Part shown: positions 17,373 through 39,215 of the stretch, piece by piece
How positions within the stretch are numbered: position 1 is the first letter of the stretch
Layout: every line of letters starts with the position of its first letter
Source of the DNA: Patescibacteria group bacterium
GTDB lineage: Bacteria > Patescibacteriota > Patescibacteriia > UBA2591 > JAQUPP01
Direction: 5' to 3'
Assembly: GCA_028716665.1 (NCBI GenBank)
Contig: JAQUPP010000002.1
Span: 203,717-267,716 of the forward strand
Length of the DNA: 64,000 nt
Notes under the pieces: generated by a model
What the model saw: the letters and a program-made list of their open reading frames with translations, nothing else
Told to the model about the DNA's origin: nothing
Databases searched by the model: none
Program-made: the position numbers and the translations under genes

Positions 17373-17406
17373 TATAATGGATTTTGTCCACCAAAAGGGC
17401 TCTTGA

Positions 17407-17547
17407 CCCCCTCACAAGGAAAATTATTGTCTTTTTTAAAAATTACGATTTAATTAAGTATAAACTTAAAATAAACATCTAATCTTAAGATATGTATATA
17501 AAAGAACAAAAGACAAGTAATTTTATAATTTTCCCCATGTGAGGGGG
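17407..17547. mobile_element. MITE family A, copy 1
   Basis: TIR CCCCCTCACA...TGTGAGGGGG with TTGA on both sides. The right flank completes TTGACA. Confidence 0.85.
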
Positions 17548-17576
17548 TTGACAAAAACCGAAAAATCTGATATTAT
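17548..17576 (+). promoter_or_regulatory. Sigma70 promoter at the MITE right end
   Basis: TTGACA-17 bp-TATTAT with an extended -10 TG. Confidence 0.7.
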
Positions 17577-17684
17577 AATATTAAATAATATCCGAGTTAT
17601 AAAGATAACTTATGGATATTCCCTACACGAGGGTAACGTGGATAGAAGAAAGAAGGTCTTTACAAAAGACAAAAGGAGGAAAAG

Positions 17685-19082
17685 ATGAAAAAAGTCTTTT
17701 CATTTTTGGCGATAGCTGCAATTCTTTGCAGCTCGATGGCTTATGGTACCTGGCCAATGTTCCAAAGAAATGCAAAACACGATGGAAGTGGACCAGCCGG
17801 ACCGGAGACAAATAATGTCAGTTGGTCTTTAAATTTAGGGACCACCTGCGGATTATTTTCTTCACCGATCAGTGATTCGTTTAATGGTGATGAAAGAATA
17901 TTTCTCGGCACCCAAAAGGGTGTGTATGAAATAAGTTCTCAGGGAGGTCTGATTCAAAAAATAGATACCGGTTATGGAACAGAAGTGTCAGTGGCTGTCC
18001 ATGATAGTACGATTTTCTTTTGCTCTAAAGATTCTTTGATTAAAAAGAATCTGACAGACAGCACAAAGAATTGGTCATATTATTTGGGAGCCAACCCTTC
18101 GGCACCAACTATTTTCGGCGGAAATATTTATGTTTACGCCAATAATAAACTCTGGTGTTTTGTTGATACCGGACTTAGCTGGGTGACCGTAACTTTAGAC
18201 AAAGGAAATGATAAAAGCGTTTCACCGGCAGTTGATGACAGTGGTAACATTTATGTTGCTACTCTCTCAAATCCGGCCGCTTATTATGATTTTCTTTTAT
18301 ATGTCTATAATCCAAACGGAACAATGAAATGGGGATATACAGCCTTAACAGGTGAACCAACGGGTGTTCATGGAACACCAACAATTGGTCCTCATGGTGA
18401 AGTTCTAGTTTGGACTTATCCAACACAGAGTTGGCCTTCAAGTCTGTACTGCATAAATGAATCAGGGAGACTTTGGCAAAAATCATCGCCGAAAATTCGT
18501 TATTCAAGTGTAGGAATATTTGGAGACACGATTATTTATTGCGGAGATAACGGAATTACGGCTTGTCTTTTGTCTGATGGTAGCACTGTTTGGAACTATG
18601 CTTTAGCAGGTCCGATCACAATTTCTTCCCCAGCCATTGGTGCTGATGGAACAATTTACGTCGGCAATGATGCAGGCAAAGTTTTGGCAGTTTCCAAAAA
18701 TGGAACTTTGTTATGGGAATATGACACCAAACAAGGACCTCTTGGAAGCCCGTCTATCGGTCCCAATAAGACGCTCCGCATCAATTCTTTAAGCGGCATA
18801 TTGTATGTTTTTAAACAAGCAGTAGGGGTCGCAGAAAAAGAAAAAATTGAAAAAATGGTAACAGTGTCTCCGACCGTTTCAGCCACTAACTTTGAAATTC
18901 AAGCTCCGGAAAGAGCTATAAAGAAAGTGTATGATATAGCCGGTAAACTGGTTAAAACCATAGGGAGCTCAAGTTGGGATGGGACAAACGAATTAAACAA
19001 GAAGTTATCGAACGGAATGTACTTTATTAACGTAAGCGTAGGTGGAGCTACGGTTACGAAGAAGATAATATTGATGAGATGA
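17685..19082 (+). CDS. Secreted PQQ-like beta-propeller protein with FlgD-Ig/T9SS-type C-terminal domain
   Basis: Signal peptide, WPMFQRNAKHDG, SSPAIGADGTIYVG-type repeats, and C-terminus VYDIAGKLVK...WDGTNE...LSNGMYFI...TKKIILMR. AGGAGG SD. Confidence 0.85.
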   Translation: MKKVFSFLAIAAILCSSMAYGTWPMFQRNAKHDGSGPAGPETNNVSWSLNLGTTCGLFSSPISDSFNGDERIFLGTQKGVYEISSQGGLIQKIDTGYGTEVSVAVHDSTIFFCSKDSLIKKNLTDSTKNWSYYLGANPSAPTIFGGNIYVYANNKLWCFVDTGLSWVTVTLDKGNDKSVSPAVDDSGNIYVATLSNPAAYYDFLLYVYNPNGTMKWGYTALTGEPTGVHGTPTIGPHGEVLVWTYPTQSWPSSLYCINESGRLWQKSSPKIRYSSVGIFGDTIIYCGDNGITACLLSDGSTVWNYALAGPITISSPAIGADGTIYVGNDAGKVLAVSKNGTLLWEYDTKQGPLGSPSIGPNKTLRINSLSGILYVFKQAVGVAEKEKIEKMVTVSPTVSATNFEIQAPERAIKKVYDIAGKLVKTIGSSSWDGTNELNKKLSNGMYFINVSVGGATVTKKIILMR

Positions 19083-19095
19083 TCTTATCAATCAC

Positions 19096-19127
19096 AAGGC
19101 AGGTGTAAAATTACACCTGCCTTTTTT
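19096..19127 (+). terminator. Terminator after the beta-propeller gene
   Basis: AAGGCAGGTGTAA-aa-TTACACCTGCCTT followed by a T run. Confidence 0.8.
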
Positions 19128-19187
19128 ATTCTTTAGAAAGGACTATTAAAGAGTGGGGGAATAGCTTATCCACAGCAGAAGGATTGA

Positions 19188-19404
19188 CCCCCTCACAAGG
19201 AAAATTATTGTCTTTCTTAAAAATTATTACCTCCTTAAATATAAGTCTCTTAATTAAAATAAAATCAGTATATATATAAAATAATAAGAAACAATCAATT
19301 TTTATTGCCAAGCGAGTGAGGGAAAAGAAAATTTATTTTCTTTTCCGAGCGAGTGCGGGCAACACAAGGTTAATATCTTTTATAATTTTCCACATGTGAG
19401 GGGG
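19188..19404. mobile_element. MITE family A, copy 2 (contains a nested hairpin insert)
   Basis: Same TIRs and TTGA flanks. Left end ACAAGGAAAATTATTGTCTTT is shared with copy 1. Confidence 0.85.
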
Positions 19405-19583
19405 TTGACAAAATGTTAATTTTTGTTTTATCCCCAAAAAGGGGGCTTGACAAATTCTCATTTTTATGATATATTATATAAATAAATAAAAGGACAGACC
19501 TATAACATAGATTTAAAGCTCTTTATAGCAATAATGTAAAATCAAGAAAATATAATTTATTTCGCATAATTAATTTATTTTAA

Positions 19584-22500
19584 ATGTTTATCATTATGAA
19601 AAATATGAAAAAGTTAAGTTTATTTCTCACAGTCTGTTTAGCAAGTTTTATTATCTTAGGCAATTCTCCATTGCCTGCTTTTGCATTAACTGAATTTAAC
19701 ACAGTGTATGTTTCTACAAACGTAGAAATAGGGGGTACTGTTTATCCTTATTTGGCAACTGTTTATGCCAGTGATGCAAGTTCTGTTAAAGTAATCGTGG
19801 AAGATCCAAGAGGAACTCAGTTTGAAAATGATTTATCTATGCATCAGGGAACAACATGGTTTGGTCCGATATCAATTTCACCTAATAATGAAGGAGGACT
19901 TTGGAAAGTGGCAAGAGTTGATATTGTAGATAATGGAGGCGCGTCTACTTCTTATTCCGAACAAACCGATCCGGGTATTTTTGCCATGTCCGGCACAACT
20001 TTTAATGTTTATAATTCACCCAAATATATTGATTCTTTTACTTTTGAAGGATTAAATCCAGCGGTTGCCGGTGTTATTAATGAAGAAACTCATAAAATTA
20101 CCGCAACTGTACCTTCTGGCACGGATTTACTTACACTTGCGCCAACCGTCGTTTTTCACGGATCATCTATTAGTCCGATAAGCGGTACTGCTCAAGATTT
20201 TACCGATTCAGTTGCTAACCCGGTAATTTATACTGTGACTGCGGAAGATAATGCAACCAAGGATTATGAAGTCACTGTTAATGTGGCGGCTAGTACTGAT
20301 AAAGCGATTACTTCTTTTACTATTCCAGGTCAGGTAGGCGATACAACTATAAATGAAGCTGATGAAAATAATTATACTATTAATTTAAATATGCCTCATG
20401 GCACGAAGGTAACTGCTCTCACCCCAACCGTTATTATTAAGGGTAATGAAGTTGAACCAAAATCGGGCATAACTCAAAATTTTGCTAATCCACGAGTTAA
20501 ATATACAGTTACATCTGCGGTTGATTCCGGTGATACTCAAGATTATTTCGTTACCGTAAATGTTCTTAATAGAATTGATGATACACTACCATATCTTAAT
20601 AATGACCAGAACAACCCTGATGGCGTGACAATTAATCCATCAATTATACATATAGGAAATTCTGTCACCGCAACTGTCAAAGCTCATGATGTGGGATCGG
20701 GTGTTGAATTTGCTAAAGTAACTATTGCCAGTCCGTCAGGAAATCAAACAGTTGAGTGCACCACTCAAGACTCAGAATTCTCTTGTGATTTATTAATTCC
20801 ATTAAATGGCGAGCTTGGAATTTGGGAAGTAAAAAAACTTGATATTAAAGATTACGCGGGAAATATTGCGCATTTTAATTATCCAGAAGGTAATCCTTCC
20901 AAACTTCCTACATTCACTGTCACCAGTTCAGCCAAAGATATTACTTCTTTCAGTTTCCCGGAAGGCGTAGGTGCTATTACCGGAACTGATATTGCCGTGA
21001 CTGTCCCATTTGGAACACTTCCTTTACTTACTCCGACAATTACGGTTTCCGAAGGAGCAACAGTCAGTCCTTGGAGTGGAATACTTCAAGATTTTACCGA
21101 CCCGGTAACTTATACTGTTACTGCGGCCGATTCTTCCACAAAAGTTTATACTGTGACTGTAACTGTCGCAGCCAATCCAACCAAATCAATTACATCTTTT
21201 AATTTTAATGAATTAAATCCGGATGTTATTGGTGTTATTAATGAAAATAACCACACTGTCGCTTTAACTGTTCCTTTTGGAACAGACGTGACAATGTTGA
21301 CACCAACCATTGCTATTACCGGATCATTTATTAATCCATTGAGCGGCATACCTCAAGATTTTACCAATCCGGTAACCTATACTGTCACTGCCACGGATAT
21401 GACAACTCAAGATTATACTGTCACTGTTGCTGTGGCTCCTAGCCCGGCGAAAGCGATTACTGCTTTCAGTTTTGTGGCTCCGGAAGCCAATGGCGTTATC
21501 AACGAAGCCAATCACACTATTGCCGTTACTGTTCCTTTTGGAACTAACGTGACAATGTTGACACCAACCATTACTATTACCGGACAATCAGTTTGGCCGA
21601 TAAGCGGCACTGCTCAAGATTTTTCAATTCCGGTTGATTATACTGTTACTGCGGCTGATATGACAATTCAAACTTATACTGTTACGGTTGTTGTCGCCGC
21701 CACCAGTTCTGAAAAAGAAATTACATCTTTCATTTTTAATGAATTAACTCCGGCAGCTGTTGGTGTTATTAACGGTGATGTTATCACAGTAATTGTTCCG
21801 TTTGGAACCAATGTGACAATGTTGACTCCAACCATTGCGCATACCGGATTATTTGTTAATCCATTCAGCGGTATAGCTCGTGATTTTACAACTCCGCAAA
21901 CTTATACTGTCACGGCCGCGGATTTTTCACAAAGAGTTTATACTGTGAATGTTACTGTGGCTCTTAATCCGGCCAAAGCAATTACTGCTTTTACAATTCC
22001 TAACCAAGTAGGTACTACAACTATCAATGAAGCTACTCATAATATTCATTTGACTATGCCGTTTGGCGCAGACGTGACAATGCTTGTGCCGACCATCGTG
22101 CATACCGGATTATTTGTTAATCCATTAAGTGATACTGCTCAAGATTTCACCAGCCCGGTAACTTATACTGTTACTGCTGCTGATTCTTCTACTCAAGCTT
22201 ACACGGTAACTGTTGCCGCAGCCACCAGTTCAGCTAAAGCAATTACTTCATTTATTATTTCTGATCAAGCAGCGGCTATTAACGAAACCGATCACACGAT
22301 CACTTTAACCATGTCTTATGGCACGGTTGTGACCGCGCTCGTTCCGACTATCACGGTTTCTGCCGGAGCAACGGTTAATCCCGCTTCTGGCGTAGCTCAA
22401 AATTTTTCCAGCCCGGTAACTTATACTGTTACTGCTGCTGATAATTCCACTCAAACCTATACTGTTACCATAACTGTTAGAGGCGGCGGTGGAGGCGGAG

Positions 22501-22961
22501 GCGGCGGTGGAAGTTCTTATACTTACAGCTCTGCCAAGGCAATCACAGCTTTCAGTTTTGATGGATTAAAACCAATCGTAGGCACTATTAATGAAACAAA
22601 TTATACAGTTCTTTTGGTTGCTCCTTATGGCACAGACGTAACTCATTTAGTGCCGACTATCACGGTTTCTGATAAAGCAAAAATTTCTCCAGTTTCAGGT
22701 GTTGCTCAAAATTTCACCAATCCTGTTGTTTACACAGTCACTGCCGAGAGCGGCGCAATGCAAACTTATACTGTGACCGTAGCCTTTACTCAAAATATTA
22801 AAACAGGTGATATTAACAAGGATGGAAAAGTTGATAAATATGACTTCTCAATATTGATGGCAAATTGGGGACAGACAGGTTTAAACATTTGCGATGTCAA
22901 TACTGACAGCAAAGTCGATAAATATGATTTCTCATTATTAATGTTAAATTGGTCTCTATAA
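19584..22961 (+). CDS. Large secreted Ig-like repeat (DUF5018-like) protein with C-terminal dockerin
   Basis: Signal peptide, about nine ~85-90 aa repeats (KAITxFxF...QDFTxPVTYTVTAAD), poly-Gly linker, and paired motifs GDINKDGKVDKYDF / DVNTDSKVDKYDF. Confidence 0.85.
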   Translation: MFIIMKNMKKLSLFLTVCLASFIILGNSPLPAFALTEFNTVYVSTNVEIGGTVYPYLATVYASDASSVKVIVEDPRGTQFENDLSMHQGTTWFGPISISPNNEGGLWKVARVDIVDNGGASTSYSEQTDPGIFAMSGTTFNVYNSPKYIDSFTFEGLNPAVAGVINEETHKITATVPSGTDLLTLAPTVVFHGSSISPISGTAQDFTDSVANPVIYTVTAEDNATKDYEVTVNVAASTDKAITSFTIPGQVGDTTINEADENNYTINLNMPHGTKVTALTPTVIIKGNEVEPKSGITQNFANPRVKYTVTSAVDSGDTQDYFVTVNVLNRIDDTLPYLNNDQNNPDGVTINPSIIHIGNSVTATVKAHDVGSGVEFAKVTIASPSGNQTVECTTQDSEFSCDLLIPLNGELGIWEVKKLDIKDYAGNIAHFNYPEGNPSKLPTFTVTSSAKDITSFSFPEGVGAITGTDIAVTVPFGTLPLLTPTITVSEGATVSPWSGILQDFTDPVTYTVTAADSSTKVYTVTVTVAANPTKSITSFNFNELNPDVIGVINENNHTVALTVPFGTDVTMLTPTIAITGSFINPLSGIPQDFTNPVTYTVTATDMTTQDYTVTVAVAPSPAKAITAFSFVAPEANGVINEANHTIAVTVPFGTNVTMLTPTITITGQSVWPISGTAQDFSIPVDYTVTAADMTIQTYTVTVVVAATSSEKEITSFIFNELTPAAVGVINGDVITVIVPFGTNVTMLTPTIAHTGLFVNPFSGIARDFTTPQTYTVTAADFSQRVYTVNVTVALNPAKAITAFTIPNQVGTTTINEATHNIHLTMPFGADVTMLVPTIVHTGLFVNPLSDTAQDFTSPVTYTVTAADSSTQAYTVTVAAATSSAKAITSFIISDQAAAINETDHTITLTMSYGTVVTALVPTITVSAGATVNPASGVAQNFSSPVTYTVTAADNSTQTYTVTITVRGGGGGGGGGGSSYTYSSAKAITAFSFDGLKPIVGTINETNYTVLLVAPYGTDVTHLVPTITVSDKAKISPVSGVAQNFTNPVVYTVTAESGAMQTYTVTVAFTQNIKTGDINKDGKVDKYDFSILMANWGQTGLNICDVNTDSKVDKYDFSLLMLNWSL

Positions 22962-22983
22962 GAATAAATAAATAATTATAAAT

Positions 22984-24264
22984 ATGAAAAATATGAAAAA
23001 TATAAAAATGAAAATTGTATTATTGACAACTGTCCTCTTATTGTCGGTTGCCGGTTTTATCGGAACAGCAGATGCTGCCAGTACTTTCTTGTACGTCTCT
23101 CCGACAAACGTCAGCAAAACTGCCGGAAGCGTATTTAACGCAACCGTAGGACTTAATAATGCCGGTGATAAGGTTTGCACCATTGAAGGTACTTTGGTTT
23201 TTAACAATTTAACTTGTCAGGGCATAACTCTTTCAAGTGGTTTGCAAGCGTTATCTTCTCCAAGTTGTTCAAGTCCTTATTTCTTAATCGGTATACCGAG
23301 TTGTACAGTGTCGGATAGAACATTAATGACTGTATCTGTTAAAGCGGAAAATGCCAAACCGTCTTCAATCAGTTTCAAAGGTGTTGATATTATCGGTGAA
23401 GGAACTTCAGTTTCTAATACTTCCGTAGCCGGAAATTATAATGTCGCTCCTGTTGTCAAACCGACTCCTGTTGCTCCGGCTCCTGTCGTGAAAGAAACTC
23501 CTAAAACAACTCCGAAAACTACAACTCCTTCAACAAAAAAAGAAACCACGCCTGCTCCTGTTGTAAATTCAGCCAAAGCTATTACTTCGTTTGACTTTGC
23601 AGCTTATGCGGTCGTAGGTGCTATTAATGAAGATACAAAAACAATCGTGGCCACCTTGCCCTATGGCACTGATGTCACCGCGCTTGTTCCAATGATTACT
23701 ACAACCGGAAAATCAGTCAGCCCGGCTTCTGGCGCGGCTCAGGATTTCTCTGATCCGATCGCTTACACAGTCACGGCTGAAGATAAATCCACTCAAACTT
23801 ATACTGTTGCCATAACCGTTGCCGCTAATCCGGCTAAAGCAATCACTGATTTCAGCTTTAAAGGTTTAGGCGCGGGTGTTATCAATGAAACAAATCATGT
23901 CATTACCGTAACCGTTCCTTTTGGAACCAAGGTTAACGCTCTTACTCCGACCATCGTTATTAACGGAGTGGCGGTCAGCCCGGCTTCCGGAATGACGCAA
24001 GATTTCACTCATTCAGTTATTTACACTGTTACCGCTGCCGACGATACAACTCAAGCTTATACTGTTACCGCAACTGTTGCTGCTAAAAAAGTTGCGAAAT
24101 CAAGTTTGTTGGGTTCAATGGCAAATGTATTATCTCTCGGAACCGGTAAAGTGTGGTTAGGTGTAATAGTGACTTTGATCATACTCGGTGTTATTGGCTA
24201 CTTCATTCTTAAAGGAAAAAAGAAAGTTAAGAAAGAAGTAAAACAAGAACCGTTGATAAAATAA
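22984..24264 (+). CDS. Membrane-anchored cohesin-like protein with two DUF5018-like repeats
   Basis: Signal peptide, cohesin-like N-terminus (LYVSPTNVSKTAGSVFNATV...IEGTLVF), Pro/Thr linker, and a C-terminal TM with basic tail. Confidence 0.7.
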   Translation: MKNMKNIKMKIVLLTTVLLLSVAGFIGTADAASTFLYVSPTNVSKTAGSVFNATVGLNNAGDKVCTIEGTLVFNNLTCQGITLSSGLQALSSPSCSSPYFLIGIPSCTVSDRTLMTVSVKAENAKPSSISFKGVDIIGEGTSVSNTSVAGNYNVAPVVKPTPVAPAPVVKETPKTTPKTTTPSTKKETTPAPVVNSAKAITSFDFAAYAVVGAINEDTKTIVATLPYGTDVTALVPMITTTGKSVSPASGAAQDFSDPIAYTVTAEDKSTQTYTVAITVAANPAKAITDFSFKGLGAGVINETNHVITVTVPFGTKVNALTPTIVINGVAVSPASGMTQDFTHSVIYTVTAADDTTQAYTVTATVAAKKVAKSSLLGSMANVLSLGTGKVWLGVIVTLIILGVIGYFILKGKKKVKKEVKQEPLIK

Positions 24265-24400
24265 TTAAGTTTTAATTGAACCTCGGAAAGGCGGATGAGA
24301 TTTTCATCCGCCTTTCATTTTGTTAAAAATATTTGACAAATTTTTAAAAATTTGCTAATCTATTAAATCAAGCATTGCAATTATATAATTTAAATTTTTT

Positions 24401-25882
24401 ATGGCTGAAGAAGTAGTTTTGCGTTTTGATAAAGTTATTTTTGAATATGTCCATAAAAAGCCCGTGTTGAACGAGGCCAGTTTTAGCGTGCGAAAAGGCG
24501 CGAAAATAACTTTAATGGGTCAGAACGGATCGGGGAAAAGCACGATTTTTAATTTAATTAAAGGAGATATCAAACCGAAGGGCGGTCAAATATCGGTTTC
24601 TTTGGGTGCTACGGTAGGTATTGCCAGTCAAACTATCAACAGAAGTGATTTGGATTTAAGCATAGAAGATTATTTTTCCAAAGCTTTTTCCATTGTGCCG
24701 GCTGATTTGCGCAGTCAGATAGCCAAAGTTATGGATGCGGTTAATATGTCCATCGGCCCCGAAGAAAGCAGCGGAGCGATCAGTTTGAAGAGGCGAGTCG
24801 GCGATCTTTCCGGTGGCCAACAAGCTCGGTTATTATTGGCTTTTGCCATGATTAAAAATCCTGATATTTTATTATTGGACGAACCGACCAACAATTTGGA
24901 CAAAGAAGGCATTGATCACTTGTTGGGATTTTTGATTATGTATCCGAAAACCGTGATTGTTATTTCTCATGACGCTGATTTTTTAAATTGTTTTACCGAG
25001 GGCGTAATTTATCTTGATATTTTTACGCATCAGACAGAAATGTATTTGGGAGATTATTATTCAGTGGTTGAGGAAATTTCAAAGCGAGTGGAAAGAGAAC
25101 AAATGAAAAACGCTCAATTAAAAAAACAAATTCTTGATCGCAAAGAAAAAGTTAATTTTTTCGCCAATAAAGGTGGAAAGATGAGAAAATTGGCCAGCAA
25201 GCTTCGCGAAGAAACAGAAGAATTGGAAGAAAATATGGTTGATGTCAGAAAAGAAGACAGGGTCATCAGAAAATTTTCAATTCCGGTGCAGGAAGATTTA
25301 ATCGGCAATATCGTGGAAATCAGATCTGTCAAAATTTTTAAAGATAATAAACTGGTTGTCAAAAAAGTTAAAAAAGATATTAATAAAAAAATTCATCTCT
25401 CGGTGGTCGGGCCGAATGGAATCGGCAAAAGCACTTTTTTGCGCTCGCTGGTTTCGGAAAAACACGAGGGTGTCAAAATCGCCGACGATATCAGAATCGG
25501 TTATTACAGCCAGGATTTCTCAAATCTTAATTTTCAGGAAACCGTACTTGATTCATTGAAAAATGTTGTGTTTGACAATTCGGATTCCCAACATTTGCGA
25601 ACAGTGGCGGCCGGATTTCTTTTAACAGGGGATATTATGGATAATCTTATTTGCGAATTATCCGAAGGGCAAAAAGGACTTTTGACTTTTGCTCGGCTTG
25701 TTTTAATGCGGCCCGGTTTATTGATTTTGGACGAGCCGACCAATCACATTAATTTTCGTCATTTGCCTTTAATCGCCGAAGCAATTAATAATTTTCACGG
25801 ACCTGTTATTTTGGTCAGCCATATGGAAAAATTTGTTGAATCATTGAAAATTAACGAAGAACTTGATCTAGGCAAATTATAA
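24401..25882 (+). CDS. ABC-F family ATPase
   Basis: Two ABC cassettes (GQNGSGKS/LSGGQ/LDEPTN and GPNGIGKS/LSEGQ/LDEPTN), no TM segments. Confidence 0.92.
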   Translation: MAEEVVLRFDKVIFEYVHKKPVLNEASFSVRKGAKITLMGQNGSGKSTIFNLIKGDIKPKGGQISVSLGATVGIASQTINRSDLDLSIEDYFSKAFSIVPADLRSQIAKVMDAVNMSIGPEESSGAISLKRRVGDLSGGQQARLLLAFAMIKNPDILLLDEPTNNLDKEGIDHLLGFLIMYPKTVIVISHDADFLNCFTEGVIYLDIFTHQTEMYLGDYYSVVEEISKRVEREQMKNAQLKKQILDRKEKVNFFANKGGKMRKLASKLREETEELEENMVDVRKEDRVIRKFSIPVQEDLIGNIVEIRSVKIFKDNKLVVKKVKKDINKKIHLSVVGPNGIGKSTFLRSLVSEKHEGVKIADDIRIGYYSQDFSNLNFQETVLDSLKNVVFDNSDSQHLRTVAAGFLLTGDIMDNLICELSEGQKGLLTFARLVLMRPGLLILDEPTNHINFRHLPLIAEAINNFHGPVILVSHMEKFVESLKINEELDLGKL

Positions 25883-25906
25883 ACAATAACCTTGTAAGGG
25901 GGTTGA

Positions 25907-26046
25907 CCCCCTCACATAGTAAATTATAAAAATTACTGTCTTTCGTTTTTACATATACTGATTTTATTTTAATTAGACATCTATTTTAACTTTTGACCTA
26001 TTAAATCGTAATTTTTAAGAAAGACAATAATTTCCTTGTGAGGGGG
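25907..26046. mobile_element. MITE family A, copy 3 (inverted relative to copies 1-2)
   Basis: Same TIRs. Its right end AAGACAATAATTTCCTTGTG is the reverse complement of the copy 1 left end, yet the TTGA flanks keep the + orientation. Confidence 0.85.
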
Positions 26047-26156
26047 TTGACAAATATTATCAATAGTGTATACTTATATAGTTACAAAAGATGCGGAAAC
26101 ATAGTCGAGTTTTTCTGTATTAAAAATTATTAAAATTAAAATAAAAGTTTAAACGT

Positions 26157-26354
26157 ATGAACGGAACTATTAAAACTCTTACGGATAGAGGATTTGGATT
26201 TATTTCTCGCGAAGGCGAAACAAAAGATCTATTTTTTCATTCCAAAAACTTGGTTGGCGTTACTTTTGCCGAATTAAAGGTTGGCGATGCCGTCACCTTT
26301 GAAGTCGAGCAGGGCGATAAAGGCCCAGCTGCCATCAATGTAGCACGCGCATAG
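26157..26354 (+). CDS. Cold-shock domain protein
   Basis: RNP motifs RGFGFI and DLFFH, 65 aa. Confidence 0.95.
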   Translation: MNGTIKTLTDRGFGFISREGETKDLFFHSKNLVGVTFAELKVGDAVTFEVEQGDKGPAAINVARA

Positions 26355-26588
26355 TCGTCGTGAGCAAAAAAGACCACTTTCGTTTGAGAGCGGTCTTTTT
26401 GTTTTTAATTTTTTTATAAGGGTCCCGCCCTTAATATTTAAATTTTTTATTTATTTTTTTTCTTATCAACTTATTTGCTTATCAACTTATTAACTGAACA
26501 CGGGGGTTGACATTTTTACTAAAATATGATATAATTTTTAACAGTAGTTTAAAATAAAAAATTAAAAATTAAAAAAGGGGAGGGGAAA

Positions 26589-26891
26589 ATGGCAAAATGG
26601 AAATTTCCTTACTGGGGCATCATTGGTTGTTATATAGTCAGAATTGATGCAGAAAGCGATGATCTTGTTTTTCCTAAATATAAAGAAGGACAAGCAGCGC
26701 TGGAGCCAGTGAGTAAGTCGAACGAGATGTTTAAAGTATTAAAGTTTAAAACAGTAGAAGCGGCAATAAAAGCAATGGCTAAGATCAAAAATAAAACTGA
26801 AAAAGAAATTTTGAAAGAAGTACAGGATAATTTCCCTAGCATGGAAATTACTCTGAAAAAAAGAAGCTTTTTCTTTTTCTGGAAAAGGTAA
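26589..26891 (+). CDS. Hypothetical protein (self-contained cassette)
   Basis: Own GGGGTTGACA...TATAAT promoter, GGGGAGGGG SD and downstream hairpin. Confidence 0.65.
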   Translation: MAKWKFPYWGIIGCYIVRIDAESDDLVFPKYKEGQAALEPVSKSNEMFKVLKFKTVEAAIKAMAKIKNKTEKEILKEVQDNFPSMEITLKKRSFFFFWKR

Positions 26892-26942
26892 AATAACAAA
26901 AACTGGGGCAGATTATTCCCCAGTTTTTTCTTTATTCGGAAA

Positions 26943-28040: not shown

Positions 28041-28127
28041 TGAATTAATTTTAAATCTTTTTTTGATTATTGACAAGGTTCTAAAATATGATATATTTAA
28101 AATAAATATTTTAAAAAGGAGGAAAAA

Positions 28128-28346
28128 GTGAATCAAAATAGAATTAAAGCATTGACAAAAGTAGGAGGAATATTCGGACTCGGTATTGGAATTATGAATG
28201 GAATTGCATTTGGGTTTGGGTCCGGCGTTGGGGTTGGGATTGAATCGGGTCTTGTAAATGGAATCGTATTTGGGCTTATGATCGGATTTGTGGGTGGATT
28301 AGCAACTTTTTTATTATTAGGGTCTTTAACAAACAGGGCCCAATAA
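28128..28346 (+). CDS. Small Gly-rich membrane protein (cassette)
   Basis: GTG start after AGGAGG, own TTGACA promoter and terminator, GxxxG-rich. Confidence 0.7.
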   Translation: MNQNRIKALTKVGGIFGLGIGIMNGIAFGFGSGVGVGIESGLVNGIVFGLMIGFVGGLATFLLLGSLTNRAQ

Positions 28347-28464
28347 TGAAAAATAAATTAAAAAGGCGGTGAAATAATTTTAGCCGCCTTTTTTATTTTT
28401 AATCAGTCGTCAATCATTGACAAAATTAGAAAATATGATATTATATGAAGAAAGGAGGAAAAAA

Positions 28465-28665
28465 ATGGGAAAAAAGAAAAATTACTATTTCAAAATAAAG
28501 ACTGTTGTAAACGGTTGTGATACAATTATTTTCCATATTGATACTAGGCCTCATCTCAAAGAGAAGGGAAAGTGTTTAACAGTAACTGCTCACGACAAAA
28601 AGGAGTCCATTTCTATATTAAAAGGAGAAACAGGAAAAGTACATGGAGGAATTATTAGTTTATAA
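28465..28665 (+). CDS. Small hypothetical protein (cassette)
   Basis: ATG at 28465 after AGGAGG, TTGACA at 28417, terminator near 28675-28700. Confidence 0.6.
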   Translation: MGKKKNYYFKIKTVVNGCDTIIFHIDTRPHLKEKGKCLTVTAHDKKESISILKGETGKVHGGIISL

Positions 28666-28742
28666 TTGTATCATAATGAGGCGCTAAAACCGCCTCATTA
28701 TTTTATCTTGAAATTTTTGCGAAAATATGCCATAATGTATTT

Positions 28743-29336
28743 ATGCCGGAAATAAATGACGAGCAACTGGTTAAAAAATATTTAAAAGGCGATGAAAAGT
28801 CGTTGGAAATTTTAATTCAACAATATCTCAAACCCGTCTATAACTTTATCTATCATTATGTAAATAGCGCTTCGGACGCCGAAGATATAACCCAAGAGGT
28901 ATTTGTAAAAATGTGGAGAAATCTTAAAAAACCTGCCCTGAGCTTGTCGAAGGGGTTTGATCCTGAAAAAGGAAAGCTTAAAACTTGGCTTTTCAGTATT
29001 GCCAAAAATGCTTCGATTGATTTTCTTAGAAGAAAAAAAACATTGTCGTTTTCCGTATTCACAGATGAAAAAGGGGATAATATTATTACAGATACATTAA
29101 AAGATAGTTCTCTATTGCCTGATGAAATTTTTGAACAAAAAAATGCAACTCAATCTCTTTTTTCGGCTATAAAAAAACTTTCTCCGAAATATCGTTTAGT
29201 GCTTGATAAACATTATAATGACGATCTTACTTTTCGTGAAATCGCCCAATCTCTTAATGAACCGCTTCATACCATAAAAAGCCGATACAGACGCGCCCTG
29301 ATTTCTCTTAAAAAATTTCTTGTTGAATCAATATAA
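28743..29336 (+). CDS. ECF sigma-70 factor
   Basis: DAEDITQEVFVK, KTWLFSIAKNASIDFLR, and region 4 TFREIAQSLNEPLHTIKSR. Confidence 0.93.
   Translation: MPEINDEQLVKKYLKGDEKSLEILIQQYLKPVYNFIYHYVNSASDAEDITQEVFVKMWRNLKKPALSLSKGFDPEKGKLKTWLFSIAKNASIDFLRRKKTLSFSVFTDEKGDNIITDTLKDSSLLPDEIFEQKNATQSLFSAIKKLSPKYRLVLDKHYNDDLTFREIAQSLNEPLHTIKSRYRRALISLKKFLVESI
28932..28955 (+). repeat. In-frame repeat insertion (PALSLSKG) in the sigma factor
   Basis: The 24-bp CCTGCCCTGAGCTTGTCGAAGGGG interrupts the expected NLKK-FDP junction. Confidence 0.65.
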
Positions 29337-29356
29337 ATAAATTTTTTTTCAGAAGA

Positions 29357-29391
29357 CAAAGGGATGCACCAAAATGCATCCCTTTGACGTA
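29357..29391 (+). promoter_or_regulatory. Palindrome overlapping a candidate ECF promoter
   Basis: CAAAGGGATGCA-ccaaaa-TGCATCCCTTTG, with GCACC...CGTA spacing typical of ECF promoters. Confidence 0.45.
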
Positions 29392-29400
29392 TTATATAGT

Positions 29401-29799
29401 ATGAATAATCAGGAAAAATTATTTAAACCCTCGGATGGTCTTTTTGACCAAATAATGTCTCGTATTCACGAGGAGCAAAAAATAATAATGGTTAAGCGCA
29501 GATTTGCGATATTTTTTGTCGGCTTGATCGGTTCTATGGCGGCTTTTATGCCTGCCTTTAAAATGATGCAAACTGGATTTAATGAATCCGGTTTTATTAA
29601 TTTTTTCTCTTTATTTTTCACTGATATTGGAATGGTCATGACTTATTGGCGCAGTTTTGCCATGACGCTTTTAGGAACACTGCCCCTGATGAGCGTGGCC
29701 ACTTTTCTGGTTATTGTTTTCATATTCCTCGAATCGCTCAAATTTTTAACGCAAGATATGAGAATTATTTTAAAGCACGCGCAAATATTTAATCATTAA
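29401..29799 (+). CDS. Membrane protein, putative anti-sigma factor
   Basis: Directly downstream of the ECF sigma. PSDGLFDQIMSRI followed by TM helices. Start moved to 29401. Confidence 0.6.
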   Translation: MNNQEKLFKPSDGLFDQIMSRIHEEQKIIMVKRRFAIFFVGLIGSMAAFMPAFKMMQTGFNESGFINFFSLFFTDIGMVMTYWRSFAMTLLGTLPLMSVATFLVIVFIFLESLKFLTQDMRIILKHAQIFNH

Positions 29800-29813
29800 T
29801 ATTAAATAATAAT

Positions 29814-30335
29814 ATGGATTTTAATAAAATTGATTTCAATAAATTTTTTCGATCAAAATCATTTAAGATCATTACTCTGATAATAATCGGAGTGATTGTT
29901 TTTTTACTTATTTTTAATCTTGGAATGATCATCGGGTTCAGAAAGGCTAATTTTTCTTACAAGTGGGGAGAAAATTATCATCAGAATTTTGCCGGTCCCC
30001 GCGGCGGTTTTTTCAGAGATTTCGGCGGCAGAGATTTTATAGAACCGCACGGAGTTTTTGGGCAAATTATTAAAATTGAAGACTCCACGCTTATTATCAA
30101 AAGTCCTGATAATGTGGAAAAAACTGTAATTGCCAAAGACGATACTGTAATTGAGCGTTTTAGAGAAACTATAAAATTAACCGATCTTAAAATTGATGAT
30201 CAAATCGTGGTTATAGGCGAACCGAACACCAGCGGACAAATAGAGGCGAAATTTATCAGAATCATGCCTCAACCAAAAAAAGAAATGCCGATGGGAAAAT
30301 TGCCTGATTTTCAAATGCCCGGCCGCCAGCGCTAA
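29814..30335 (+). CDS. Membrane-anchored OB-fold (DUF5666-like) protein
   Basis: TM segment, then GQIIKIEDSTLII...DLKIDDQIVVIG...IEAKFIR. Confidence 0.65.
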   Translation: MDFNKIDFNKFFRSKSFKIITLIIIGVIVFLLIFNLGMIIGFRKANFSYKWGENYHQNFAGPRGGFFRDFGGRDFIEPHGVFGQIIKIEDSTLIIKSPDNVEKTVIAKDDTVIERFRETIKLTDLKIDDQIVVIGEPNTSGQIEAKFIRIMPQPKKEMPMGKLPDFQMPGRQR

Positions 30336-30370
30336 ATTATATTAATTATTCTTTTATTATATTTATTATG

Positions 30371-30579
30371 CCAGGTAGTGGACTTTGACTTGTCCTCTCA
30401 CAGCTAAAAAGTTTTATCTGGTATATATTTCGCGCATCTAACATATTGTTGAAGATTTAATTTGTTGATTTTTGGTCGGACAAAAAATCATAAGATAAAC
30501 AAAGGTTTCCTAAAATAATTTAATTAATAATTTAAAACTTTGGTAATTTTACAAAAATTGTCAAAGTTCTACTACCTGG
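30371..30579. mobile_element. MITE inserted at a start codon (TATG duplication)
   Basis: TIR CCAGGTAGTGGACTTTGAC / GTCAAAGTTCTACTACCTGG, with TATG on both sides. Confidence 0.8.
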
Positions 30580-30580
30580 T

Positions 30581-32461
30581 ATGAAGAAAAAAATTACATC
30601 AAAACAAAAATTTATTATCGCGCTGATTATTATTTTAATAGCCGGCGGAAGTTATTTTGTATATAAAAAAAATAAAAGCAACACAACTGAAATTCGTTAT
30701 ACATTAACCAAGGTTGAAAAGGGGACGTTGATTACTTCTGTTTCCGGAAGCGGACAAATTTCAGCCTCCAATCAAGTGGATATTAAAGCAAAAGCATCGG
30801 GCGACGTGGTTTATTTGGGAGTAAAATTAGGCCAAGAAGTTAAAAGCGGGACCTCTCTTGTCAGATTGGATCCCAGTGATGCTCAAATAAATGTACGGAA
30901 CGCCGAGACAGCTCTTGAAACAGCCAAGCTTCAATTGGAGGATCTATTGGCTCCGGCAGACAAGCTTACAATGTTGCAAGCGGAAAATTCTCTTGTTCAA
31001 GCCAAGGACAGTTTGACTAAACTTAAATTTACTCAAGCGACTAATTATCAGAATGCTTTAGACGCTAAACAAAACGCCAAAGATGATCTTCAAAAAGCTT
31101 ATGAGGATGGTTTTAATAATGTATCGAATACATTTCTTGAACTTCCGAACATTATAACCGGACTTCAAGATTTATTGTTTGGTTTTAATTTTTCAACAAC
31201 TCAATACAATCTTGATTACTATACAAGTATTTCTCAATTATATGACGAAAAAGCGACGCAATACAGAGATGACACTTATACGAAATATCAATCTGCCCGC
31301 ACAGCCTATGATAAAAATTTTTTGGATTACAAATCCGCGGACAGGTCTTCGGATAAAATCGTAATTGAATCACTGATCAGTGAAACCTACGAAACCACCC
31401 GAAGTATTGCTGAAGCGTTAAAAAGTGTCACTAATTTAATTCAATTTTATAAAGATAAATTAACCGAGCGCAGTTTAAGACCACAAACACTTGCCGATAC
31501 TCATCTCTCCACTCTCAGCACTTATACCGGAAAAACAAACACATATCTTCTTAACCTTCTTTCAATCAAGAGTACTTTGCAAACAGACAAAGATACAATT
31601 ATTGATAAAGAGAGAGATTTGAAAGAAATGGATCAAAATTATCCTCTTGATTTGACAGCCAGTGAAGAAAGTATAAAAGAAAAAGAACAAAAATTGGCCG
31701 ATTTGAAAGCCGGTGCCACTGATCTTGATATTAGAAATCAAAAAATAACTATTCAGCAAAAGCAAGATGCTTTAACAAGCGCGAAACAAACTCTTGCGGA
31801 TTATTATATTCAGGCCCCTTTTGACGGAGTGGTTGCAGAGTTAAATGTTAAAAACGGAGATTCAATTTCTTCCGGTGCCTCGGTTATTACCTTTATCACC
31901 AAGCAAAAAATGGCTGAGGTTACTCTTAACGAAGTTGATATTGCTAAAGTGAAAATAGGACAAAAAGTAACCATCACTTTTGACGCAATTGAAGATTTAA
32001 GTATCAGCGGTGAAGTGATAGAAACCGACGCAATCGGAACGGTTTCTCAAGGAGTGGTGACTTATAACGTAAAAATCGGATTTGACACTCAAGATGAACG
32101 TGTGAAATCAGGAATGAGTATGTCTGCGACAATAATTACGGATGTTAAACAAGACGTTTTATTAATTCCCAACTCCGCGGTAAAAACTTTGGGCGACACG
32201 TCTTACGTGGAAATATTTGATTCAACAATTAATCCAAAAAATTCAACGACAAATACTGCGACTGTTATTGTAAAAAATTCTCCCGCTCAGCAATCAATTC
32301 AGACCGGTTTGATAAATGATTCGTCCACGGAAATTATAAGCGGTCTTAAAGAAGGCGATTGGGTGGTCAGTGGGACCAGCAGCAGTTCTTCTGCCACGCA
32401 AACAAAAACAACCAATACAAGAAATTTATTTCAAATGGGAGGCGGCGGACCGCGCGATTAA
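30581..32461 (+). CDS. MacA-like membrane fusion (adaptor) protein with long coiled coil
   Basis: N-terminal TM, lipoyl-like halves (IKAKASGDV; IQAPFDGVV), NEVDIAKVKIGQ and GMSMSATI. Confidence 0.88.
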   Translation: MKKKITSKQKFIIALIIILIAGGSYFVYKKNKSNTTEIRYTLTKVEKGTLITSVSGSGQISASNQVDIKAKASGDVVYLGVKLGQEVKSGTSLVRLDPSDAQINVRNAETALETAKLQLEDLLAPADKLTMLQAENSLVQAKDSLTKLKFTQATNYQNALDAKQNAKDDLQKAYEDGFNNVSNTFLELPNIITGLQDLLFGFNFSTTQYNLDYYTSISQLYDEKATQYRDDTYTKYQSARTAYDKNFLDYKSADRSSDKIVIESLISETYETTRSIAEALKSVTNLIQFYKDKLTERSLRPQTLADTHLSTLSTYTGKTNTYLLNLLSIKSTLQTDKDTIIDKERDLKEMDQNYPLDLTASEESIKEKEQKLADLKAGATDLDIRNQKITIQQKQDALTSAKQTLADYYIQAPFDGVVAELNVKNGDSISSGASVITFITKQKMAEVTLNEVDIAKVKIGQKVTITFDAIEDLSISGEVIETDAIGTVSQGVVTYNVKIGFDTQDERVKSGMSMSATIITDVKQDVLLIPNSAVKTLGDTSYVEIFDSTINPKNSTTNTATVIVKNSPAQQSIQTGLINDSSTEIISGLKEGDWVVSGTSSSSSATQTKTTNTRNLFQMGGGGPRD

Positions 32462-32497
32462 CATAATAAATAGAAATAGAATCATTAAAATATAATT

Positions 32498-33211
32498 ATG
32501 ATTGAATGTAAAAATATTTCAAAAATATATCAAGTCGGTGAATTCGAAACTGCTGCTTTGCAGAAAGTGTCATTTACCATTAATGATGGCGAATTCGTGG
32601 CGATTATGGGACCGTCCGGTTCAGGTAAATCAACTTTGATGCATATTTTGGGCGCGCTTGATACTCCGACCAGCGGTCAATATTTTTTAGACAATCATGA
32701 TGTTTCCACTCTTTCTGATGATGAATTGGCGGATATCAGAAAAAATAAAATCGGTTTTATTTTTCAATCATTCAATCTTTTGCCGCGCGCGACGGTTTTG
32801 CGAAATGTCATGCTGCCGCTTATTTATTCAAACGTCCCCAAAGCGGAGCGCGAAATATTGGCGCGACAAGCTTTAAAAAATGCAGGATTGGATGAATCGC
32901 ATTTTAATCATCTTTCCAATCAGCTTTCCGGTGGTCAAATGCAAAGAGTGGCCATTGCCCGCGCCTTGGTTAATAATCCGGCTTTAATTCTTGCCGACGA
33001 ACCAACCGGAAATTTGGATACCAAAACCGGTGATATTGTTTTGGAGGCTTTTCAAAAATTAAATCAAGAACAGCATCGCACGATTATTTTAATTACGCAT
33101 GAACGATATGTAGCTGAACACACGGACCGGATAATTTTTATCCGCGACGGCGCTATTGTGGAAGATTCAAAAAATAAAAACAGATTAACTATTAATCACG
33201 ATCATTTATGA
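32498..33211 (+). CDS. MacB/LolD-like ABC ATP-binding protein
   Basis: [17 protein letters not shown] and [10 protein letters not shown]. Confidence 0.93.
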
Positions 33212-34431
33212 AAGTACAAGACTTATTTGAAGAAACATATTTTGCTTTGCTCGCCAATAAAGCGCGAACAGGTTTAACTGTTCTTGGCATTGTAATCGGT
33301 ATCGGATCAGTGATTGCCATGATTTCACTCGGTCAAGGCGCGACAGGTTCCATAGAATCAAGTATTCAATCAATCGGTTCAAATTTAATTATCGTAATGC
33401 CAAGTTTTCAAAGAGGAGTCGGCACTCAAGTAAGCGCGGGTCGGGGATCTGCTCAAACGCTCAAGCCGGCGGACGCAGAAGCCATTCAAGAACAAATTAC
33501 TCTTGTGAAAGCTGTTGCTCCTGAACTTTCAGGCCGCTATCAAATTACGACAAAAGGAAAAAACACCAATACTTCGGTTATCGGGACTACGGCCGCATAT
33601 TCTTCGGTTCGCAATGTTGAAGTTGATATTGGTTCTTTTATTTCAGATCAAAATGTGCAGGGTTCATCAAAAGTGGCGGTTATCGGTCCAACGGTCAGAG
33701 ATGATCTTTTTGGCGAAAATGTAAATCCGGTCGGACAAACGATTCGCATCAAAAAAATTGAATTTAAAGTTATCGGTCTTACCAAAACAAAAGGCGGAAG
33801 CGGTTTCAGCAATCAGGACGATCAGATTTATGTTCCTTTGTCCACGGCTCAGCGTTTCTTGGCCGGTAGCGAATATGTAAGTACAATCAGCGTGCAGGCA
33901 GTTGATCAAAAATCAATGACTGAATTGCAAAGTCAAATTACAACATTATTATTAAGCCGTCACAATATTTCAGATGCTGCCTTGGCTGATTTCAGTACTA
34001 TGAATCAATCTGATATTGTGGAAAGCGCATCTTCAATAACTAAAACTTTAACCATGCTTTTGGCCGCGATTGCCGGAATTTCTTTGATTGTCGGCGGTAT
34101 TGGTATTATGAATATGATGTTGACTAACGTTACTGAGCGAACAAGGGAAATCGGTTTGCGAAAAGCCATTGGTGCCAAAAGATCGGAGATTAATCTTCAA
34201 TTTTTAACTGAGGCGGTGATGGTTACTTTCCTTGGAGGAGTTATCGGCGTTTTATTCGGCTGGCTTATTTCACTTGGCATTTCTCAATTTAGCAGTATTG
34301 CCACCAAGATGTCATTATCGTCAGTTTTGTTGGCCTTTGGCGTATCGGCCGCGATTGGAATTATATTCGGTTATTACCCGGCCCGCCGTGCTGCAGCCCT
34401 TAATCCTATTGAAGCACTGAGATACGAATAG
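33208..34431 (+). CDS. MacB-like ABC permease
   Basis: LTVLGIVIGIGSVI, VGGIGIMNMML..VTERTREIGLRKAIGA and PARRAA.LNPIEALRYE. Confidence 0.93.
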   Translation: MKVQDLFEETYFALLANKARTGLTVLGIVIGIGSVIAMISLGQGATGSIESSIQSIGSNLIIVMPSFQRGVGTQVSAGRGSAQTLKPADAEAIQEQITLVKAVAPELSGRYQITTKGKNTNTSVIGTTAAYSSVRNVEVDIGSFISDQNVQGSSKVAVIGPTVRDDLFGENVNPVGQTIRIKKIEFKVIGLTKTKGGSGFSNQDDQIYVPLSTAQRFLAGSEYVSTISVQAVDQKSMTELQSQITTLLLSRHNISDAALADFSTMNQSDIVESASSITKTLTMLLAAIAGISLIVGGIGIMNMMLTNVTERTREIGLRKAIGAKRSEINLQFLTEAVMVTFLGGVIGVLFGWLISLGISQFSSIATKMSLSSVLLAFGVSAAIGIIFGYYPARRAAALNPIEALRYE

Positions 34432-34472
34432 AATAAGCTAATAAGTAAATAAGTTAATAAGCTAATAAGTAA
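34432..34472. repeat. Degenerate 8-bp tandem repeat (AATAAGYW) after a stop codon
   Basis: AATAAGCT AATAAGTA AATAAGTT AATAAGCT AATAAGTA. Related runs at ~26462-26494 (reverse) and ~63983-64000. Confidence 0.7.
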
Positions 34473-34482
34473 TTAAAAAATT

Positions 34483-34935
34483 ATGAAAAAAATATTACCA
34501 ATTATTATAATATTGGTTGTCGTAGTAGGCGGAGGAGCTTTTTTCGGAGGCATGAAATATGCTCAAAGTAAACAATTAAAAAATGGTAATTTTGGCAATC
34601 TCTCGGCAGCAGAACGGCAACAGCGTTTTCAACAAATGGGGAACGGTATGGCTCCAACTGGAAATAGACAAGGCGGTGTAAATTCTATCAGCGGAGAAAT
34701 TATTTCTCAAGATGATAAAAGCATTACCGTCAAATTAAACGATGGCGGATCAAAAATTATTTTTTATTCCGACACGACTCAAGTTATGAAATTTTCTCAA
34801 GGATTAGCTGCTGATTTAAAAATAGGGGAGAATGTTATGGTGAATGGTTCTTCTAACTCAGACGGCAGTATTACCGCCAAATCAATTCAGCTAAGACCGG
34901 CTACACCGCCGGCTCAGCCGCAAATTCAAAAATAA
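34483..34935 (+). CDS. DUF5666-like membrane-anchored protein
   Basis: TM segment, [22 protein letters not shown] and [26 protein letters not shown]. Confidence 0.75.
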
Positions 34936-35041
34936 AAGAGTTTCTATAATCAAAAAGCGTTGTTTTTAAACAACGCTTTTTGATTTGACAAAAACAAAAA
35001 AAATGTTATTATAAAATCAGTAAATAAAAAAGGAGGAAAAA

Positions 35042-35302
35042 ATGAAATTATTTATCTGTGATGAGTGTCGCAGAGCAATAGTTTTAACCGGTGAATGGCA
35101 AAATTGTGGATGCGGAAAGGTTGGCGGTAAAAATGTTGAAAATGGCATAGAAATAATAATCGCTGTCAAAAATAAAGAAACCGCCAGAATATTGGATATA
35201 CCGGAAAGTGTTGTAAGTGGAGGCGCCCAGGAAGGAAAAGTTTCAATTATTCCATGGGCCAGTAAGGCTATAATTTTCAAAAAAAACAAACAGAAGGCTT
35301 AA
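35042..35302 (+). CDS. Small Cys-rich (Zn-binding) hypothetical protein (cassette)
   Basis: CDEC...CGCG, AGGAGG SD, own TTGACA promoter and terminator. Confidence 0.7.
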   Translation: MKLFICDECRRAIVLTGEWQNCGCGKVGGKNVENGIEIIIAVKNKETARILDIPESVVSGGAQEGKVSIIPWASKAIIFKKNKQKA

Positions 35303-35336
35303 AAACCTTCTGTTTTTCTATATTTTAGGGGGTTGA

Positions 35337-35480
35337 CCCCCTCACCAAACGTTGATATATGTATTAAACAAGAAGTCCATATTTGTTTATATTTAAAGTA
35401 TTTTTATTTATATTAAATTTTAAATTTATGGATTTGATAAATATAAAACTGAGTGTTTATCAGCGTTATAGGTGAGGGGG
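35337..35480. mobile_element. MITE family A, copy 4 (divergent interior)
   Basis: TIR CCCCCTCACC...GGTGAGGGGG with TTGA flanks. The right flank reads TTGACA-17-TATATT. Confidence 0.8.
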
Positions 35481-35562
35481 TTGACAAAACGTTGATTTTG
35501 TGCTATATTTATACTATATAAAATGGATCTTTAAAAAAAACAAAGAAAAAAAGGGAGGAAAA

Positions 35563-38906: not shown

Positions 38907-39029
38907 TGCTCAGCATTTTTTAAAAATTTGTATAGAAAACATTATAGAGTATCTTTTTTTAGAGATACTTTATTTTTTTTAAGAGATATAGCTTCGCATT
39001 TAAAAAATAAATAAATTCTGGGTGCGGGG
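38886..39029. mobile_element. MITE overlapping the tatD 3' end
   Basis: Perfect 19-bp TIR CCCCGCACCCAGAATTTAT with a TTTA duplication. Confidence 0.85.
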
Positions 39030-39083
39030 TTTAAAACAAGATTTAATAAAAAAAGAAGATTATTAATAATCTTCTTTTTTATA

Positions 39084-39147: not shown

Positions 39148-39215
39148 GATATTTGAGGCGAGTTTCGTAATACTCGTTGCCATTCGATATTTTTTGTGGT
39201 AAAATGTTAAACATG

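Follow-up and report, generated by a model that had tools for sequence, protein, structure and literature searches.

The window considered here is a stretch of 64,000 nucleotides from a Patescibacteria group bacterium (assembly GCA_028716665.1, contig JAQUPP010000002.1, positions 203,717 to 267,716 of the forward strand), and it carries four copies of a short non-coding element with terminal inverted repeats (TIRs), each lying within a TTGACA hexamer. All four copies start with CCCCCTCAC (at 17407, 19188, 25907 and 35337) and finish with GTGAGGGGG (at 17547, 19404, 26046 and 35480). In each of them TTGA stands on both sides and CA follows the right TTGA, by which TTGACA is restored, just as the initial annotation of this DNA had described. 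The junction 13-mer TTGACCCCCTCAC, with at most one mismatch, occurs four times against a shuffle mean of 0.02, and none of 100 shuffles reached four. Also borne out is the -10 box said to follow copies 1, 3 and 4 at 16-17 bp (TATTAT at 17, TATACT at 16 and TATATT at 17 bp); promoters here and below are inferred from consensus -35/-10 hexamers. The restored TTGACA of copy 2 has no good -10, but another TTGACA, paired with TATATT, is found 42 bp downstream. Copies 1-3 belong to subfamily A and copy 4 to subfamily B. The interior of copy 3 is inverted relative to copies 1 and 2, and copy 2 is longer than the others because a different 83-bp repeat is nested inside. Folded as single-stranded DNA (ssDNA), three of the copies fold back at z -3.6 to -6.3. 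Two further related elements are found in the window, at 30371-30579 (TATG on both sides, at a start codon) and at 38886-39029 (TTTA on both sides). The coordinates are collected in Table 1.

Table 1. Elements, restored promoters and associated loci; positions are those of the window, except in the last row (contigs C1 and C2 of the source genome G000). G001 and G002 are its two congeners; ORF, open reading frame; MITE, miniature inverted-repeat transposable element.
Feature	Position	Strand	Remarks
Left TTGA repeat of copy 1	17403..17406	+	
Copy 1, subfamily A MITE, 141 bp	17407..17547		ssDNA fold-back z -6.3
Regenerated -35 TTGACA, 17-bp spacer, -10-like TATTAT	17548..17576	+	upstream of beta-propeller ORF at 17685
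Copy 2, subfamily A MITE, 217 bp	19188..19404		site empty with single TTGA in both congeners
Different 83-bp repeat nested in copy 2	19301..19383		TTTAT at both ends
TTGACA without good -10, then second TTGACA at 19447 with TATATT at 17 bp	19405..19475	+	
Right-end-like remnant before copy 3	25890..25902	+	G002 orthologue is GTGAGGGGG, then single TTGACA
Copy 3, subfamily A, interior inverted relative to copies 1-2	25907..26046		one end equals the GIY-YIG cassette end at 18/19 bases
Regenerated -35 TTGACA, 16-bp spacer, -10-like TATACT	26047..26074	+	upstream of cold-shock-domain gene 26157-26354
Sister family D element, ends CCAGGTAGT/ACTACCTGG, TATG both sides	30371..30579		
Copy 4, subfamily B MITE, 144 bp	35337..35480		
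Regenerated -35 TTGACA, 17-bp spacer, -10-like TATATT	35481..35509	+	upstream of ORF with ATG at 35563
Related element, ends CCCCGCACC/GGTGCGGGG, TTTA/TTTA	38886..39029		absent at G001 orthologue
Second-design GIY-YIG loci, G000	C1:201295, C1:461268, C1:50992, C1:211146, C1:424631-425160, C2:184342		

We compared the source genome (G000; 974 kb in 2 contigs, 35% GC) with its two congeners, covering 873 kb of G001 and 686 kb of G002. The element catalogue was passed through a family filter, 3 spurious rows and 3 composite spans were removed, and 9 elements were added by hand, 2 of which, off by one base, were left uncounted. The resulting orthologue counts are element-by-genome pairwise comparisons, not independent loci. 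Elements outside family D gave 163 comparisons, with 31 sites empty (23 at exactly -4 bp), 23 filled, 6 in another state and 103 without an orthologue call; family D gave 42 comparisons, with 17 empty (8 at exactly -4 bp), 4 filled, 1 other and 20 without a call. Since the empty orthologous sites carry a single 4-mer, the elements are true insertions, and the 4-bp target duplication with regeneration of the -35 hexamer that had been proposed holds, including for copy 2, where both congeners have an element-free site with one TTGA. The refuting outcome named beforehand, empty sites lacking a single TTGA, thus did not occur. The bases duplicated are 1-4 of the hexamer (or -1 to 3). Copy 3 is absent from both congeners, and no orthologue of copies 1 and 4 was found in the congener DNA compared. 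Contigs of the read runs X3 and X4 cover copy 3 and, in part, copies 2 and 4 at 100% identity; as these runs come from what may be the source study, they were not counted as independent support. The 30371-30579 element is missing from its site in G002 and in an X3 contig, and its right TATG provides the ATG of an HlyD-type ORF at 30581. Being short, non-coding and TIR-bounded, with a target duplication shown by empty alleles, the four copies are MITEs in structural class.

Two arguments drawn from the window alone stood only in part. The inverted interior of copy 3 is real, although it is by itself no proof of a duplication, because 1 of the 19 comparisons at sites shared between congeners was found flipped in place; both orientations occur in G000 (3 versus 4 in family A, 11 versus 5 in family D). 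The G-run before copies 3 and 4 had been read as the end of an earlier element. For copy 3 the flank does resemble an old right end, the G002 orthologue being GTGAGGGGG-TTGACA. For copy 4 it is not sustained: 39 GGG-TTGACA sites divide into 18 paired element ends, 4 end-like sequences and 17 that are neither, and several empty sites also carry G-runs before the -35, so that the left flank of copy 4 need not be an old element end because such G-runs are often native. Repeated use of one site, which was suggested on the same grounds, does occur, as true stacks in G001 (C1:13372 and 13489) and as 2-3 tandem copies in the loci L210, L213 and L237. The TTGACA promoter at window position 24333 is element-free in G000 and G001 and holds a family D element with TTGA/TTGA in G002, and its upstream DNA differs among the genomes.

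A genome-wide search for the end pair found 14 exact pairs in G000, of which 12 are TTGA/TTGA, one is TTAG/TTGA and one is CTTG/CTTG. When G000 was scanned for inverted ends with an exact 4-bp repeat and GC-containing ends were kept (58/343), the peaks were TTGA with CCC ends (16) and TATG with CCA ends (15), against 10 scattered matches in a shuffled genome. The 14-mer of the right end plus TTGAC has 6 and 9 matches in the two congeners and, among 38 others of the order, a single match in one genome, and the paired end pattern matched 1 of 300 other genomes of the class. Related subfamilies are much wider, family D being found at 59 GTDB loci and family C at 72 metagenome loci. In viral contigs there were no matches to the D ends; three matches to B ends had no partner end and were judged to be chance. 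The repeat nested in copy 2 has about a dozen solo copies across G000 and one hybrid with A-type ends at C2:79707.

The promoter targeting proposed in the initial annotation needs to be widened. In G000, 21 of 24 TTGA elements continue with CA, as compared with 168 of 1096 intergenic TTGA sites. A -10 is found at 26 of 35 unique TTGACA targets and at 121 of 168 intergenic TTGACA sites, which is no enrichment, because intergenic TTGACA in this genome is mostly promoter-like already. Among the other targets (TTGACT, TTGACG, TTGCTC, TTGCCA and others), a strict -10 follows at 16-18 bp in 12 of 14 rows (two rows being the same locus), against a background of 192 of 1221 sites (16%; P 2e-8), and therefore promoter position, not the hexamer alone, predicts the insertion site. 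In family D, all 15 TATG copies in G000 lie on ORF starts versus 58% expected from start plus intergenic TATG (P 3e-4); among the genes hit are what we take, from their N-termini, to be smc and rpsO. Family D also uses TTGA -35 boxes, in one G000 copy and two G002 copies. Of 51 distinct paired family D rows in GTDB, 32 have a right TATG and 8 have flanks like the Shine-Dalgarno (SD) motifs GAGG/GGAG (counted by eye, some near-copies), while the 38 paired family C rows from metagenomes comprise 10 TTGA/TTGA, 6 TTTA/TTTA and 3 TATG/TATG (several stacks or near-copies). The -35 box is thus one of several targets, since start codons, SD-like motifs, the 5' ends of tRNAs and RNase P RNA are struck by related ends as well. 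A restriction of family D to leaderless starts was considered and dropped, a -10 box lying 6-9 bp upstream at some sites and not at others (by eye). Three tRNA-end copies in G000 (C1:13666-13771, C1:24153-24293 and C2:10547-10686) depart from the family consensus at both ends, each time in the single base that agrees with the tRNA.

It could be that no promoter recognition is involved, the elements merely preferring the sequences TTGA(CA) and TATG and selection purging insertions that do not restore a signal. The lack of extra -10 enrichment among TTGACA targets fits such a preference, as do a genome that is 90% coding (by an ORF mask made for this analysis) and the use of TTGA, TATG and GAGG by the same ends. 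We regard it as possible but rather doubtful, given the -10 at the non-TTGACA targets and the exclusive placement of the TATG copies at ORF starts. It concerns targeting only and is compatible with mobilisation by the nuclease described next.

The only gene found between such ends encodes a small GIY-YIG nuclease, of which the PF01541 profile finds 17 genes in G000, 10 in G001 and 8 in G002. In the 287-bp cassette at C1:268776-269062 of G000 (ends CCCCTCACATGGAAATTAT/ATAATTTCCATGTGAGGGG), an 87-aa GIY-YIG nuclease is the sole gene; its ORF begins directly after the left end and stops within the right end, and the cassette ends agree with one end of window copy 3 in 18 of 19 bases. The cassette is placed at the 5' end of a tRNA with a repeat of 8 bp, and the two Gs that close it are also the first two bases of the tRNA. 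The matching tRNA gene of a congener has no cassette, but its upstream DNA differs and we did not count it as a clean empty site. A second cassette of G000 (C1:439041-439350, 310 bp) has family D ends, TATG/TATG at the grpE start codon and an 87-aa GIY-YIG ORF inside, and 4 of 5 TATG cassettes have the ATG of the left repeat in the reading frame of the nuclease ORF. We searched an alignment of 12 A-type proteins over 400 genomes of the class, of which 55 matched. Of the 29 loci with the best non-self homologues, 25 are bounded by CCC(C)NCAC ends at a distance of 281-320 bp; the remaining four are one seed with ends visible by eye, one without ends and two unparsed. Most nuclease cassettes lie at tRNA 5' ends and others at targets including RNase P RNA genes. 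The cassette of L350 sits in a TTTACG -35 box with TTTA/TTTA and TATACT at 16 bp, the nearest case to a TTGA cassette. Identical 78-aa cassettes at two unrelated loci of G001 (C3:30691 and C5:13411) suggest recent movement.

Residues Y5, Y16, R26, H30 and E62 are invariant across the 12 aligned proteins, and the predicted structure (pLDDT 92.9) matches the UPF0213, HIGLE and Slx1 folds. In a tree of 47 proteins, all 8 A-type rows fall inside one group of 20 rows (93/91), with D (99/93) and F (95/91) separate; mapping end type on the tree takes 21 changes against a shuffled mean of 33.1, a contrast that near-copies inflate. The SRM-flanked protein of L266, which we presume to be cd10448-like, lies outside the cassette group (96/90 split, long branch).

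Several observations touch these cassettes and their surroundings. In L312, L337 and L344 (and, by motif only, in L305, L336 and L353) an A-type cassette is placed within or directly beside an RNase P RNA gene and shows no exact direct repeat, and a recurrent non-identical flank pair, TTCA/TAAA or TTTA/TGAA, surrounds cassettes and MITEs in L347, L349, L351, L300 and L226. In a second design in G000, the GIY-YIG gene has the intact tRNA on one side and a duplicate of the tRNA's 5' part on the other, and in most cases this duplicate contains a GC-rich palindrome (last row of Table 1). Eight relatives of the nuclease occur in viral contigs, with no inverted ends in the 7 that were parsed. A scan of two window copies and two cassettes at Rfam gathering thresholds gave nothing but one tRNA. 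In the window, the region downstream of copy 2 (19584-24264) codes for a pair of DUF5018 repeat proteins, of which one has a dockerin domain at its C-terminus, and a near-perfect 72-bp palindrome (39080-39151) lies beside the 38886-39029 element, upstream of a UvrD-like gene.

The expectation of an autonomous transposase with the same TIRs did not hold, as the partner with the same ends encodes a GIY-YIG nuclease and not a recognised transposase. Profile searches of G000 gave no match to PF01609, PF13701, PF00872 or PF12762, the DDE families covered being these and PF06782; PF00872 is absent from all three genomes, and PF06782, also without a match in the three, is uninformative since its control matched nowhere. 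No DDE gene was seen between the ends in the 59 GTDB and 72 metagenome loci. A weak DDE_Tnp_1 match in G002 (L021) was rejected as a transposase; its ORF, 584 aa long, has an HEXXH-like motif and lacks the element ends. The IS1380 family, to which the initial annotation had linked the elements, has CC..GG ends and 4-5-bp repeats, and both are likewise seen here. This link found no support: PF13701 (DDE_Tnp_1_4, IS1380) has no match in G000, G001 or G002, while its control matched in 4 of 14, and the coding elements are ~290 bp long and not 1.5-2 kb.

A classical DDE transposase, lost or encoded elsewhere, could still have moved the elements, the GIY-YIG gene being captured cargo. TIRs, exact 4-bp repeats at the 23 non-D empty-site comparisons and both orientations are typical signs of such an enzyme, and MITEs often outlast their transposase. 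We consider this unlikely, since besides the negative searches the nuclease ORF fills the cassette, the nuclease clade tracks the end type, and the repeat length varies from 0 to 9 bp. Still less probable is a homing-like spread, in which the nuclease nicks empty alleles and homologous repair copies the element from incoming DNA, new sites being rare. GIY-YIG domains are indeed homing endonucleases (a weak TIGR01453 match below cut-off; I-TevI fold) and many sites are common to the congeners, but dozens of unrelated sites in one genome, stacking at one site and the identical 78-aa cassettes of G001 require movement to new places. That a REP-associated Y1 (HUH) transposase moves them as REPIN-like units appears very improbable to us, even though some ends hold GTAG or CGTC words resembling the REP tags in the part of PMC3733652 that we draw on. 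The Y1 profile PF01797 matches two genes in G001 and none in G000 and G002, and three Y1 loci are without any of these end motifs; unlike in REPIN/RAYT systems, no Y1 transposase gene is flanked by these repeats.

The ends, the insertion polymorphism, the target register at the -35, the ends common to nuclease cassettes and the tie of end type to one nuclease clade are direct observations. Our analysis suggests that the GIY-YIG nuclease is the putative mobiliser of the MITEs, which we consider likely. With somewhat less assurance, we think it probable that the four copies are gene-less MITE derivatives of the ~290-bp nuclease cassette, mobilised in trans by fold-back ssDNA nicking. The element on ssDNA would fold back through its own ends, and the Slx1/Ssn-like nuclease would nick the flanks a few bases outside the stem. 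The freed piece would keep one or a few flank bases and join a nicked target matching those bases, and host repair, which we assume, would fill in the short repeat and join the ends. Where an element lands would then probably depend on this short match (TTGA, TATG, tRNA 5' end), on promoter-dependent access and on selection. As the downstream signal is rebuilt by the repeat, the promoter, start codon or tRNA of the host would stay intact. One D copy has CATG on the left and TATG on the right while both empty orthologues have CATG, i.e. a non-templated base; among the GTDB rows, 7 show CATG/TATG again (one of them has the flanks of that D copy) and not one shows the reverse pair, and a GTTG/CTTG pair with a GTTG empty site behaves alike. 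Such non-templated bases in the right repeat favour carry-over of flank bases, which could give a lineage a memory of its target and explain stacking. On the broadest proposal we are evenly divided: the cassette may represent a new class of ~290-bp insertion sequence with the nuclease as sole enzyme, which would excise as fold-back ssDNA with flank bases as a heritable target memory, insert at the first bases of expression signals (-35, start codon, SD, tRNA 5' end), restore them, and often capture them for its own expression.

A number of points weigh against the nuclease as mobiliser. The exact repeats at the 25 cassettes are not uniformly 4 bp: 6 cassettes have repeats of 7-9 bp, 4 of 4 bp and 3 of 2-3 bp, while 12 have none. 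Among 55 genomes of the order, the 5 pattern matches for cassette-sized elements at TTGA contain no real one (one is two stacked MITEs and four are chance). ORF remnants within MITEs are weak (12 of 87 at p<=0.05, copies non-independent), that on the minus strand of copy 1 being FFYIHIL, similar to the nuclease N-terminus. In the protein tree, the bootstrap was unconverged, the 20-row group is below the starred threshold, the labels were set by eye, and similarity to the A protein guided part of the choice of rows. Drift of the left copy accounts for most of the other one-base mismatches between repeats, both orientations and clean 4-bp repeats would also be expected of a DDE enzyme, and we know of no strand-transfer activity of a lone GIY-YIG domain.

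If the nuclease is the mobiliser, the transposition chemistry would fall outside the DDE, HUH and serine/tyrosine/IS110 recombinase classes and be carried out by a protein of fewer than 90 residues. The streamlined Patescibacteria genomes tolerate dozens of insertions at promoters and core-gene start codons, and the insertions swap upstream promoter DNA and 5' leaders among close relatives. Insertion at an exact base of the -35 hexamer provides a sharp handle on whether RNA polymerase guides the element. A literature search, with most subscription papers outside it, found no description of TIR-bounded GIY-YIG cassettes or of MITEs that split the -35.

A fixed insertion position relative to sigma-A/70 promoters is shared with TnGBS/ISLre2 (p-MULT 3) and ISKra4, going by the portion of PMC3942029 used here, whose authors read such insertion by TnGBS/ISLre2 as limiting the cost to the host. 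Those elements are Mutator-like DDE elements placed 15-17 bp upstream of the -35 according to the same portion (PMC3942029), whereas insertion here is inside the -35 hexamer. Of the Mutator-family profiles, PF00872 gave 0/3 genomes and PF06782 also 0/3, the latter with a control that matched nowhere. Correia-type prokaryotic MITEs, as far as the passages of PMC10969869 on them go, are likewise short, non-coding, TIR-bounded and near genes, and can flip in place. They bring their own promoters (PMC10969869, same passages), while here a host -35 is split and restored and the partner gene is no known transposase.

Also close is Ssn (SsnA, cd10448), where, in the sections of PMC11893778 consulted, a single-domain GIY-YIG gene of ~90 aa stands between repeats of its own, which also exist in many copies without the gene; the cassette nucleases likewise keep the catalytic Tyr, Tyr and Glu. 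According to these sections SsnA cuts ssDNA a few nucleotides outside its hairpin, and the authors suggest that NTS-ssnA-NTS was mobile (PMC11893778). Unlike the single hairpins of Ssn NTS/SRM described there, the cassette repeats are paired TIRs across the gene (CCC(C)NCAC) with target duplications and empty sites, and the words 'duplication', 'Patescibacteria' and 'CPR' do not occur in the main text of PMC11893778. The cassette proteins also group apart from the sole SRM-type protein in the tree. We do not class the cassettes as Ssn, because of their paired terminal repeats, their duplications and a probably different subfamily. If the nuclease is the mobiliser, the suggested mobility of Ssn-like GIY-YIG genes becomes directly testable.

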